From Escherichia coli (GTDB lineage: Bacteria; Pseudomonadota; Gammaproteobacteria; Enterobacterales; Enterobacteriaceae): 64,000 bases of DNA. The stretch is taken from assembly GCF_003334785.1 (NCBI RefSeq), contig NZ_QOWV01000004.1; one strand, 5' to 3'. This document shows, one piece after another, positions 13,200 through 14,207 of the stretch. The position numbers were made by a program, and so were the translations under genes. The notes below the pieces were generated by a model. It was given only the letters and a program-made list of their open reading frames with translations. It was not told where the DNA came from and did no database searches. The stretch's first letter is position 1; each line of letters opens with the position of its first letter.

Positions 13200-14207
13200 A
13201 TGACTGATAAAACCATTGCGTTTTCGCTACTCGATCTGGCCCCCATTCCCGAAGGTTCTTCAGCGCGAGAAGCATTCTCCCACTCTCTCGATCTCGCCCG
13301 TCTGGCTGAAAAGCGCGGCTATCATCGCTACTGGCTGGCAGAACACCACAATATGACTGGCATTGCCAGTGCTGCCACGTCGGTATTGATCGGCTATCTG
13401 GCGGCGAATACCACCACGCTGCATCTGGGGTCTGGCGGCGTGATGTTGCCTAACCACTCACCGTTGGTCATTGCAGAACAGTTCGGCACGCTTAATACAC
13501 TCTATCCGGGGCGAATCGATTTGGGGCTGGGTCGTGCTCCGGGTAGTGACCAACGGACAATGATGGCGCTACGTCGTCATATGAGCGGCGATATTGATAA
13601 TTTCCCCCGCGATGTGGCGGAGCTGGTGGACTGGTTTGACGCCCGCGATCCCAATCCGCATGTGCGCCCGGTACCAGGCTATGGCGAGAAAATCCCCGTG
13701 TGGTTGTTAGGCTCCAGCCTTTACAGCGCGCAACTGGCGGCGCAGCTTGGTCTGCCGTTTGCGTTTGCCTCACACTTCGCGCCGGATATGCTGTTCCAGG
13801 CGCTGCATCTTTATCGCAGCAACTTCAAACCGTCAGCACGGCTGGAAAAACCATACGCGATGGTGTGCATCAATATTATCGCCGCCGACAGCAACCGCGA
13901 CGCTGAATTTCTGTTTACCTCAATGCAGCAAGCCTTTGTGAAGCTGCGCCGTGGCGAAACCGGGCAACTGCCGCCGCCGATTCAAAATATGGATCAGTTC
14001 TGGTCACCGTCTGAGCAGTATGGCGTGCAGCAGGCGCTGAGTATGTCGTTGGTAGGTGATAAAGCGAAAGTGCGTCATGGCTTGCAGTCGATCCTGCGCG
14101 AAACCGACGCCGATGAGATTATGGTCAACGGGCAGATTTTCGACCACCAGGCGCGGCTGCATTCGTTTGAGCTGGCGATGGATGTTAAGGAAGAGTTGTT
14201 GGGATAG
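13200..14207 (+). CDS. yhbW: luciferase-like (flavin-dependent) monooxygenase family protein, 335 aa
   Basis: 335-aa ORF; LLM-family sequence; 80 bp downstream of ubiV. Confidence 0.9.

Follow-up and report, generated by a model that had tools for sequence, protein, structure and literature searches.

The luciferase-like monooxygenase gene yhbW behind ubiUV in Escherichia coli: regulation, gene order and a conserved inverted repeat in the intergenic spacer

The gene yhbW, which follows ubiU and ubiV in a 64,000-nucleotide stretch of an Escherichia coli genome (contig NZ_QOWV01000004.1; the window), is most probably a stand-alone stress-inducible gene whose place beside ubiUV is an accident of inherited collinearity and not functional coupling. 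The question that was originally raised, whether yhbW encodes an O2-dependent counterpart of UbiUV, receives a clean negative answer: the synteny is limited to certain lineages, yhbW has an independent promoter, and UbiI, UbiH and UbiF are the known counterparts. yhbW is not to be counted in the UbiUVT system of ubiquinone synthesis. Much of this picture, namely the identity of the gene and its regulation by stress, was largely known already; the one new detail is a hairpin in the spacer that separates ubiV from yhbW. The features discussed below are collected in Table 1.

Table 1. Positions in the window of the genes and intergenic elements around yhbW.
Feature	Position	Strand	Description and evidence
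ubiU	11237..12232	+	331 aa; NCBIfam quinone_UbiU, 560 bits; RefSeq annotation
ubiV	12241..13119 (stop codon included)	+	292 aa by the RefSeq start; NCBIfam quinone_UbiV, 363 bits
ubiV-yhbW spacer	13120..13199	+	80 nt, AT-rich (30% GC)
Left arm AATAGCTCACTTTGTTA	13123..13139	+	Long inverted repeat; overlaps the marbox-like site 13124-13143 and the -35-like TTGTTA
Conserved loop block TTTAATGCAGTATTAAAG	13156..13173	+	Alignment; candidate -10 (CAGTAT or TATTAA)
Right arm TAACAAAGTGAGCTGTT	13183..13199	+	Shine-Dalgarno-like GTGAG (13190-13194); abuts the yhbW ATG
yhbW CDS	13200..14207	+	335 aa, ATG to TAG; ORF call, profiles, RefSeq annotation
Compound palindrome	14226..14316	.	Between convergent yhbW and mtr; holds one canonical REP
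mtr (tryptophan permease)	14325..15569	-	Convergent with yhbW; ORF call and RefSeq annotation

Identity of the yhbW product

Profile and structural comparisons identify YhbW with confidence as a group-1 (MsnO8-family) luciferase-like FMN-dependent monooxygenase. The original prediction had described a luciferase-like monooxygenase of 335 aa, and this is borne out by an exact ORF and by matches to both profile collections: residues 8-302 align with positions 3-310 of the 314-position Pfam model PF00296 Bac_luciferase (E = 8.3e-40), and the protein scores 733 bits against the NCBIfam equivalog model PRK10508 "luciferase-like monooxygenase" (cut-off 540) and 444.2 bits against TIGR03558 "MsnO8 family LLM class oxidoreductase" (cut-off 166.95). 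The AlphaFold2 model of YhbW (pLDDT 95.4, pTM 0.93) shows the alternating strands and helices of a (beta/alpha)8 TIM barrel, every one of its top 50 Foldseek matches in the PDB is an LLM or F420 TIM barrel (best TM 0.91), and the closest PDB entry by both sequence and fold is MsnO8 (4US5). Identity as an F420-dependent LLM oxidoreductase was rejected, since all F420 subfamily models give scores of 18-50 bits (cut-offs 167-470) and align to the N-terminal ~90 residues only.

The segment is annotated as yhbW in the RefSeq annotation of E. coli K-12 MG1655 and was found in 5420 of 5426 complete E. coli genomes. Recent horizontal acquisition of the gene was rejected because its GC and GC3 contents match those of its neighbours.

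The substrate of YhbW was originally described as unknown, and the literature agrees: the purified protein did not oxidise vanillin in the one published assay, which used photoreduced FMN (PMC6561319). YhbW is probably an enzyme of the two-component type. We suggest that FMNH2 might be provided by Fre or another free flavin reductase, or by NfsA or NfsB, which belong to the same regulon and are co-induced, and that YhbW with FMNH2 and O2 would form a flavin-C4a-(hydro)peroxide. In analogy to MsnO8, which epoxidises an enone, the enzyme might then oxygenate a xenobiotic or damage product that is an electrophilic aromatic, an enone or quinone-like; we infer the enone or quinone substrate from two sources, this analogy and the membership of yhbW in its regulon. 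The placement in the MsnO8 family, together with the co-induction of the flavin reductases NfsA and NfsB, reduces the number of YhbW substrates and partners worth testing.

Regulation and gene order of yhbW and ubiUV

Published studies describe direct activation of yhbW by MarA, SoxS, Rob and RamA family proteins from a promoter just upstream of the gene, whereas ubiUV shows the opposite pattern, being expressed in anaerobiosis under Fnr. An independent promoter, which the original prediction had named as a result that would speak against a connection with ubiUV, does exist: RamA of Klebsiella pneumoniae binds the yhbW promoter in EMSA and, when transcription is assayed in vitro, raises its activity 6.9-fold (PMC4310594). 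Overexpression of marA in E. coli raises yhbW by 2.8 log2 (PMC9948449), deletion of ramA in Salmonella lowers it 3-fold (PMC3139621), and the Rob regulon list includes it (PMC7653855). Vanillin increases YhbW protein 77-fold in a soxS-independent manner (PMC6561319), and the gene is co-expressed with nfsA, nfsB and fpr (PMC11062982). Among proteins without a known function, YhbW is one of those that the mar/sox/rob response induces most strongly. As a gene, yhbW is also a multicopy suppressor of rpoE essentiality.

Within the window, a scan with the marbox consensus (AYnGCACnnWnnRYYAAAY) returned its best match, with 3 mismatches, on the + strand in the left part of the spacer, ~19 nt upstream of the conserved CAGTAT; ~0.7 such matches were expected in the region scanned and matches of this quality occur at ~0.1% of window positions, so the site is no better than chance and is therefore used as a lead only. 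A consensus scan of the spacer returned neither a terminator-like nor a sigma-70-like site, in keeping with the original remark that no obvious strong terminator separates ubiV from yhbW. The SMRT-Cappable-seq and 3'-end mapping supplements list no start-site, 3'-end or operon entries for yhbW or ubiV.

The upstream genes of yhbW score as UbiU, UbiV and UbiT with NCBIfam profiles, and ubiV is the second gene of the Fnr-activated anaerobic ubiUV operon (PMC10470549). The distance of 80 bp on the same strand that had been given for yhbW and ubiV is correct. On the other side, the yhbW transcription unit is bounded by mtr. The REP cluster that had been placed after yhbW is roughly right, in that a single canonical REP (14256-14284, - strand) lies there, nested inside a compound palindrome that folds at -57 kcal/mol (z = -5.8). 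The REP consensus has a second copy at 40281, with 0 expected by chance. Franconibacter, in which just 33 nt separate yhbW from mtr, does not share the palindrome.

Adjacency of ubiUV and yhbW was found in all sampled loci of Enterobacteriaceae, Erwiniaceae and Pectobacteriaceae (n=19), and in those three families the block yhbS-ubiT/ubiUV-yhbW-(mtr)-deaD is collinear as a whole. Synteny outside Escherichia, as the original prediction had asked about it, thus holds in these families and is missing in Providencia (YhbW 85% identical), in Aeromonas caviae and at 70 more loci (53-63% identity), of which ~50 are proteobacterial. None of these 72 non-adjacent loci, 66 of which are covered for 2.5 kb or more upstream, has a UbiU/UbiV (U32) match at E<=1e-5 within 8 kb. 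All-against-all ORF clustering of the neighbours of YhbW homologues at the 72 loci gave no recurrent partner and no adjacent reductase, with an ORF caller that is crude and yields spurious frames in GC-rich genomes, and with individual neighbours left unannotated. Conservation of the ubiT/ubiU/ubiV neighbourhood with yhbW across Proteobacteria was not found; gene-neighbourhood methods that link yhbW and ubiUV in E. coli pick up a lineage-specific collinearity.

These observations bear on the proposal that yhbW is functionally tied to ubiUV, as an O2-dependent hydroxylase or helper that acts on ubiquinone intermediates, is co-transcribed with ubiUV and is used under micro-oxic conditions. The shared strand, the 80-nt gap lacking a canonical terminator and the adjacency kept across three enterobacterial families are all consistent with it, as are insertions of ERIC and REP elements in the spacer, since such elements are mostly inserted in transcribed regions. 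Against it stand the loss of synteny beyond those families, the opposite regulation of the two units (Fnr and anaerobiosis for ubiUV, the stress activators MarA, SoxS, Rob and RamA for yhbW), and a conserved hairpin that would mask the yhbW ribosome-binding site on just such a polycistronic RNA. The O2-dependent role, moreover, is already filled by UbiI, UbiH and UbiF, and mutants in these hydroxylases are severely ubiquinone-deficient even though they carry yhbW (PMC10470549). Judged from the literature only, neither co-regulation of yhbW with ubiUV nor a need for it in ubiquinone synthesis was found, and the gene goes unmentioned in the ubiUV/Fnr study (PMC10470549). We regard the proposal as close to refuted.

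The inverted repeat between ubiV and yhbW

The spacer is a single-copy conserved regulatory module that belongs to yhbW. Of 5426 E. coli genomes, 5419 carry a single copy of it, and it is conserved across genera of Enterobacteriaceae. Insertions in the gap always lie upstream of the left arm, whether ERIC (E. coli E148, E. albertii), REP (Salmonella) or ccdA (Tenebrionibacter). The AAGTGAG of the right arm is unchanged in all 15 aligned Enterobacteriaceae and also occurs in Providencia, where ubiV is absent upstream.

Almost all of the gap is taken up by a 17-nt inverted repeat, the arms of which are 94% complementary, a feature that had been missed by the original prediction. The hairpin folds at -28.8 kcal/mol (z = -4.6, with 0 of 200 shuffles as stable), its 17-bp stem includes the Shine-Dalgarno sequence and ends at the base before the yhbW ATG, and it has no U-tract. 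Both arms are kept in ~15 genera, with a loop of either 43 nt or ~115 nt, and the conserved block in the loop holds a small palindrome, TTAAT-N5-ATTAA, as an inner inverted repeat. In Providencia, which has no co-directional upstream gene, the Shine-Dalgarno arm is kept and the hairpin is absent (z = -0.6). A repeat family or MITE was ruled out for the hairpin because it is present at a single copy per genome, and an Rfam match to a miRNA precursor model was a sub-threshold chance hit (27 bits against a gathering threshold of 56).

Across the alignment, 86.7% of hairpin cells are paired compared to 31-47% in slid controls. The covariation score is the same as the mean of the shuffles, with one pair showing a double change and 7 G.U cells; since the arms hardly vary, it does not rise above these controls, and for this reason we do not regard the RNA structure as proven. 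By our own reading of the alignment, substitutions that affect one side only of the core stem are for the most part A>G or C>U changes that give G.U pairs. The two arms could also be conserved for separate reasons. When folding was modelled for transcripts starting in the loop and for read-through transcripts, accessibility of the Shine-Dalgarno/AUG region was 0.45-0.66 for the former versus 0.09-0.36 for the latter in 11 of 13 species; in Franconibacter and Buttiauxella it differs little between transcript types.

We tentatively propose, as one possibility, that the spacer is a translational insulator, by which read-through RNA would be silenced and RNA driven by MarA/SoxS/Rob and started in the loop would be translated. 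The marbox-like and -35-like element of the left arm, together with a -10 in the loop block, would form the yhbW promoter, the position of the -10 being a candidate suggested by sequence. Transcription of yhbW would thus start inside the hairpin loop, and transcripts from its own promoter would therefore lack the 5' arm and be translated. Since the upstream sequence is complementary to the yhbW ribosome-binding site, ubiUV read-through RNA, with both arms, would fold back on itself and go untranslated, its yhbW Shine-Dalgarno sequence and start codon buried, which would keep the O2-requiring YhbW silent in anaerobiosis. If this is true, it would show how tightly packed genes of opposite oxygen logic escape cross-talk without a terminator.

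The same inverted repeat could instead act as DNA, its arms being two marbox-like sites or the operator of an unknown repressor and the RNA hairpin a by-product, a reading that we consider possible though somewhat unlikely. The best marbox-like match is indeed the left arm and the next best is the right arm, on the opposite strand; both arms are near-invariant with covariation that is not significant; a left-arm-like ATAGCATCACTTGTG lies upstream of yhbW in Providencia, in a different genomic context; and the loop palindrome TTAAT-N5-ATTAA is conserved, with one TTCAT/ATGAA double change in Cronobacter. An arm spacing that varies from 43 to ~115 nt between genera would, however, be unusual for a two-site operator, and activators of the MarA family each recognise one asymmetric site as a monomer. 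The right arm, moreover, lies over the Shine-Dalgarno sequence and downstream of any plausible start site, and the bias of one-sided changes towards G.U-compatible transitions on the + strand also argues for action as RNA. A further reading assigns the hairpin to ubiUV, as a stabiliser of its mRNA 3' end or a non-canonical terminator. In E. coli the hairpin begins 3 nt past the ubiV stop codon, and Erwinia, Acerihabitans and "Klebsiella sp. BIGb0407", which lack it, have other GC-rich hairpins directly after ubiV. We nevertheless judge this reading improbable: a U-tract is absent, the module stays by yhbW and not by ubiV upon insertion of ERIC, REP or ccdA, and the 3' arm is the ribosome-binding site of yhbW, a sequence retained even in Providencia, which lacks ubiV upstream.

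Comparison with known systems

MsnO8, the mensacarcin epoxidase of Streptomyces bottropensis, is the founding member of TIGR03558, the subfamily HMM to which YhbW belongs, and matches YhbW over its full length (E = 5e-50); its structure (4US5) superimposes on the YhbW model with a TM of 0.91 and an rmsd of 2.3 A at 32% identity. Both are luciferase-like TIM barrels expected to receive FMNH2 from a separate reductase. MsnO8 acts on a defined enone substrate, and its gene lies in a polyketide cluster together with that of its own reductase; yhbW, by contrast, is a solitary housekeeping or stress gene that belongs to no cluster and has no adjacent reductase. LuxAB and other two-component LLM monooxygenases such as 3,6-diketocamphane monooxygenase share PF00296 with YhbW (TM 0.7-0.77) and supposedly also its flavin C4a-peroxide chemistry, but are only 14-20% identical; YhbW scores 31 bits with the LuxA model (cut-off 600) and 25 bits with the LuxB model (cut-off 500), and is inactive on the aldehyde vanillin (PMC6561319).

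Like YhbW, UbiI, UbiH and UbiF are O2-dependent flavin monooxygenases of the same organism, and YhbW at its native level does not replace them. The three are class A FAD enzymes. Unlike YhbW, they are encoded elsewhere, constitutive and required for aerobic ubiquinone synthesis (PMC10470549). MarA and RamA induce the flavoenzymes of the MarA/SoxS/Rob regulon (nfsA, nfsB/nfnB, mdaB and fpr) along with yhbW, co-expression with yhbW is seen across datasets, and all are, with YhbW, flavin-dependent detoxification or redox enzymes; these are reductases with known substrates (nitroaromatics, quinones), whereas YhbW, which is uncharacterised, stands alone among them as a monooxygenase-type enzyme.

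For the spacer, the closest parallel is the IS10 "fold-back inhibition" of Davis, Simons and Kleckner (1985), which reportedly protects a gene from outside read-through transcription. In IS10, sequence upstream of the start site is complementary to the ribosome-binding site, such that only transcripts from outside form the inhibitory hairpin, and the geometry that we propose for the two arms is the same. Unlike IS10, yhbW is a chromosomal stress gene behind an anaerobic operon, and the mechanism here is put forward from sequence and modelled folding. If it is correct, the spacer would be a chromosomal case of IS10-type fold-back protection, one that allows a stress gene that requires O2 to lie 80 nt behind an anaerobic operon with no terminator between them.

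Conservation of yhbW and its neighbourhood

The window is E. coli chromosomal DNA. The 1.4-kb segment around yhbW is 100% identical to that of K-12 MG1655 and was found in 5420 of 5426 complete E. coli genomes, in which the annotated order is ubiV - yhbW - mtr; the base composition of yhbW matches that of the neighbouring genes. The original prediction of a luciferase-like ORF closely following ubiV on the same strand was borne out (see table), as was the lack of an obvious strong terminator between the two genes, with a consensus scan of the gap returning neither intrinsic-terminator-like nor sigma-70-like sites. 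A REP was also present 3' of yhbW as described, but "cluster" is too strong a word for a single element. An outer inverted repeat, perfect over 11 nt (GCCTTATCCGA/TCGGATAAGGC), encloses this REP, so that yhbW and mtr, which converge here, are separated by a compound stem of very high stability; in Franconibacter the REP is absent and the yhbW-mtr gap is 33 nt.

Features of the yhbW locus and of related loci (positions with an L-number refer to retrieved contigs carrying yhbW homologues)
Feature	Position	Strand	Remarks
ubiV	12241 (RefSeq start) to 13119	+	RefSeq
ubiV-yhbW gap	13120-13199	both genes +	80 nt
Left arm, AATAGCTCACTTTGTTA	13123-13139	+	17 nt; 3 nt past ubiV stop
Loop palindrome, TTAAT-GCAGT-ATTAA	13151-13177		small, conserved
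Loop block, TTTAATGCAGTATTAAAG	13156-13173		conserved; always present in loop
Right arm, TAACAAAGTGAGCTGTT	13183-13199	+	complementary to left arm; last base adjoins ATG
yhbW ORF	13200..14207	+	335 aa
Compound palindrome enclosing REP	14226-14316		-57 kcal/mol, z = -5.8
Canonical REP	14256-14284	-	one copy in 117-nt yhbW-mtr spacer
Second REP, perfect consensus	40281-40309		same consensus as REP 3' of yhbW; 0 expected by chance
ERIC/IRU element, core CACCCCAGTCACTTACTTATGTAAGCTCCTGGGGATTCAC	L092 2377-2501		E. coli E148; 125 nt
Enlarged ERIC/IRU element	L008 7650-7922		E. albertii
REP-like palindromes	L084 2319-2420		Salmonella; junction 3' of ubiV
ccdA antitoxin gene	L090 542-1400	opposite	Tenebrionibacter; junction 3' of ubiV
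TAACAAAGTGAG leader and ATAGCATCACTTGTG element	L001 5900-5919 and 5984-6000		Providencia vermicola

YhbW matched Pfam PF00296 (8e-40), the NCBIfam equivalog PRK10508 (733 bits; cut-off 540) and TIGR03558, "MsnO8 family LLM class oxidoreductase" (444 bits; cut-off 167), while scoring far under the cut-offs of all F420-type and LuxA/LuxB models. Among solved structures, MsnO8 (4US5) is nearest in sequence, with E = 5e-50 over the full length, and an AlphaFold2 model made with 49 diverse homologues as input (pLDDT 95.4) matched MsnO8 with a TM of 0.91, compared with ~0.7-0.77 for other luciferase-like TIM barrels. The family is very large (1646 clusters at 50% identity with E <= 1e-30), and conservation among Enterobacterales is 80-99%. 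Additionally, a 539-aa database protein on an 8-kb contig (P0056) joins a 99%-identical YhbW part to PF00175/PF00667 (FAD-/NAD-binding reductase); it probably reflects chimeric assembly or gene calling, and would be informative if it were a natural monooxygenase-reductase fusion.

A genome scan with one genome per species yielded 80 yhbW-homologue loci (99% down to 53% identity), which were queried by tblastn with UbiU, UbiV, UbiT, YhbS, Mtr and DeaD from the window. The divergent ubiT, ubiUV and downstream yhbW arrangement was present in all Enterobacteriaceae loci among the 80 and also in Erwinia endophytica (Erwiniaceae) and Acerihabitans arboris (Pectobacteriaceae), and adjacency was kept in all further enterobacterial contigs retrieved (Franconibacter, Salmonella, Atlantibacter, Cronobacter, Buttiauxella, Pluralibacter, Tenebrionibacter, Entomohabitans and three more); wherever it holds, the whole yhbS...deaD block is collinear. 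Conservation of the neighbourhood thus extends beyond Escherichia in these three families but is absent from the other loci searched. In Providencia vermicola (Morganellaceae; L001) the YhbW protein is 85% identical and its gene has unrelated surroundings, with small hypothetical genes nearby and a divergent upstream neighbour, and no U32-family match at E <= 1e-5 was found within 8 kb in Aeromonas caviae (63%) or 70 further loci. The non-syntenic loci are alpha-, beta-, gamma- or delta-proteobacterial (~50) or belong to Bacillales, Flavobacterium, Verrucomicrobia and other groups; upstream sequence reached 2.5 kb or more in 66 of the 72 loci lacking the adjacency, and clustering of all neighbouring ORFs at these 72 revealed no recurrent partner gene. 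The family is typically a solitary gene. A contig from a MAG labelled Klebsiella pneumoniae (L075) carries only a 58%-identical homologue, with ubiUV not nearby; a second paralogue or mis-binning of the contig would account for this.

Regulation and predicted chemistry of YhbW

The ubiUV operon is Fnr-activated and expressed from microaerobiosis to anaerobiosis, and yhbW goes unmentioned in the work that established the ubiUV transcription units (PMC10470549). yhbW is a member of the MarA/SoxS/Rob/RamA regulon (PMC4310594, PMC3139621, PMC9948449, PMC7653855): its promoter in K. pneumoniae is bound by purified RamA and activated 6.9-fold in vitro (PMC4310594), it falls 3-fold along with nfsA, mdaB, acrAB and tolC upon ramA deletion in Salmonella (PMC3139621), it rises 2.8 log2 along with nfsA, nfnB and mdaB upon marA overexpression in E. 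coli (PMC9948449), and it is among three Rob-regulon genes lowered in rob mutants (PMC7653855). Its co-expression partners are azoR, nfsA, nfsB and fpr (PMC11062982). Furthermore, YhbW was the top protein induced by vanillin (77-fold protein, 13-fold mRNA, soxS-independent), with purified YhbW negative for vanillin oxidation and the knockout showing only a small yield defect (PMC6561319); yhbW overexpression suppresses rpoE essentiality (PMC2215328).

Two readings had been proposed for yhbW, an O2-dependent counterpart of UbiUV or an unrelated passenger. The counterpart role is held by UbiI, UbiH and UbiF, and strains lacking these show severe ubiquinone deficiency despite intact yhbW (PMC10470549). 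Taken together, the reported regulation and genetics and the loss of synteny elsewhere in substance refute the first reading, and a functional link between yhbW and ubiUV is not supported; with its own promoter and lineage-limited synteny, yhbW is most likely a passenger.

Since YhbW is an MsnO8-family LLM whose reductase is neither fused nor adjacent, by analogy it should use free FMNH2 and O2. NfsA and NfsB are homologues of the reductases that supply Vibrio luciferase, and the inducers of mar/sox/rob are phenolics and redox-cycling quinones. Given this homology and their induction by the same activators as yhbW (PMC9948449, PMC3139621), these flavin reductases would be the natural FMNH2-supplying partners of YhbW. 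The substrate of MsnO8 is an enone in an aromatic polyketide, which is epoxidised (PMC10709465); this chemistry and the nature of the inducers lead to the doubtful guess that YhbW might oxygenate an electrophilic aromatic, enone or quinone-like compound, whereas its general description as a detoxifying monooxygenase of the mar/sox/rob response is reasonably probable.

A conserved predicted hairpin between ubiV and yhbW

As yhbW, the enzyme family and the regulon were all known before, the finding so far is an ordinary one; a conserved predicted hairpin that would bury the yhbW ribosome-binding site offers a modest new testable lead. Nearly all of the ubiV-yhbW gap is taken up by one inverted-repeat structure, missed in the original prediction, whose right arm includes the Shine-Dalgarno-like GTGAG. 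The spacer RNA folds at -28.8 kcal/mol (z = -4.6; none of 200 shuffles as stable), with no U-tract, no real family match in Rfam and one copy per genome. Both arms are kept in ~15 enterobacterial genera, with a loop of 43 nt in E. coli, Citrobacter, Salmonella, Superficieibacter and Pluralibacter and of ~70-115 nt in Enterobacter, Franconibacter, Cronobacter, Atlantibacter, Entomohabitans and Buttiauxella. All of the latter except Buttiauxella have in common an extra ~70-nt insert (CAGCTTTTCTGGCCGG...CCAGGCTGGAAGAAGACCTTCAATCTGATGAC; L004, L009, L002, L087, L086, L093) located 3' of the -10-like block and 5' of the right arm; the insert has a GC-rich stem of its own and would lengthen the yhbW 5' UTR. 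The loop palindrome has changed on both sides in Cronobacter (TTCAT-GCAGT-ATGAA) with symmetry kept, and its symmetry is broken in Salmonella and Franconibacter; possible roles are an inner stem in the RNA or an operator that overlaps the -10 region.

The junction after ubiV is an insertion hot spot. The ERIC insertion there is polymorphic within E. coli, being present in a subset of strains at the precise boundary of the ubiV stop (after GTAAATA) and the left arm. Since mobile insertions always lie 5' of the left arm, leaving the hairpin intact in all cases, it is yhbW, not ubiV, that the module accompanies. Providencia, in which the upstream co-directional gene is absent, keeps the Shine-Dalgarno arm (TAACAAAGTGAG) and lacks the hairpin (z = -0.6); an element ~85 nt upstream of its yhbW (ATAGCATCACTTGTG) resembles the E. 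coli left arm/marbox and forms no hairpin. The long hairpin is also absent from Erwinia, Acerihabitans, "Klebsiella sp. BIGb0407" and two related contigs, a group with different GC-rich stem-loops straight after ubiV.

Possible role of the hairpin

A -35-like TTGTTA and the highest-ranking marbox-like match (13124-13143), which with 3 mismatches is at chance level, both overlap the left arm, with conserved CAGTAT/TATTAA ~19 nt downstream, and these motifs would place a candidate yhbW transcription start within the loop. An mRNA starting there would lack the 5' arm, whereas RNA reading through from ubiUV would carry both arms, and the modelled unpaired probability of the Shine-Dalgarno/AUG is 0.45-0.66 for the former versus 0.09-0.36 for the latter in 11 of 13 species. 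That the hairpin acts as a translational insulator, hiding the yhbW ribosome-binding site on read-through RNA, is possible but falls short of probable. A serious rival is that the arms act at the DNA level as protein-binding sites. Pairing between the arms holds in 86.7% of cells compared with 31-47% in slid controls, and the alignment has one double change (G-C x4 / A-U x3) and seven G.U cells. The covariation score does not differ from the mean of the shuffles and is not significant because the arms barely vary. As read from the alignment of clear hairpin-bearing species, all transitions in the 13-bp core are A>G or C>U, with G.U retained on the + strand, a bias that is suggestive of RNA pairing (p ~0.03 if changes are independent and phylogeny is ignored). 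IS10 disregards outside transcription by "fold-back inhibition", and the arrangement proposed for the yhbW spacer would be similar.
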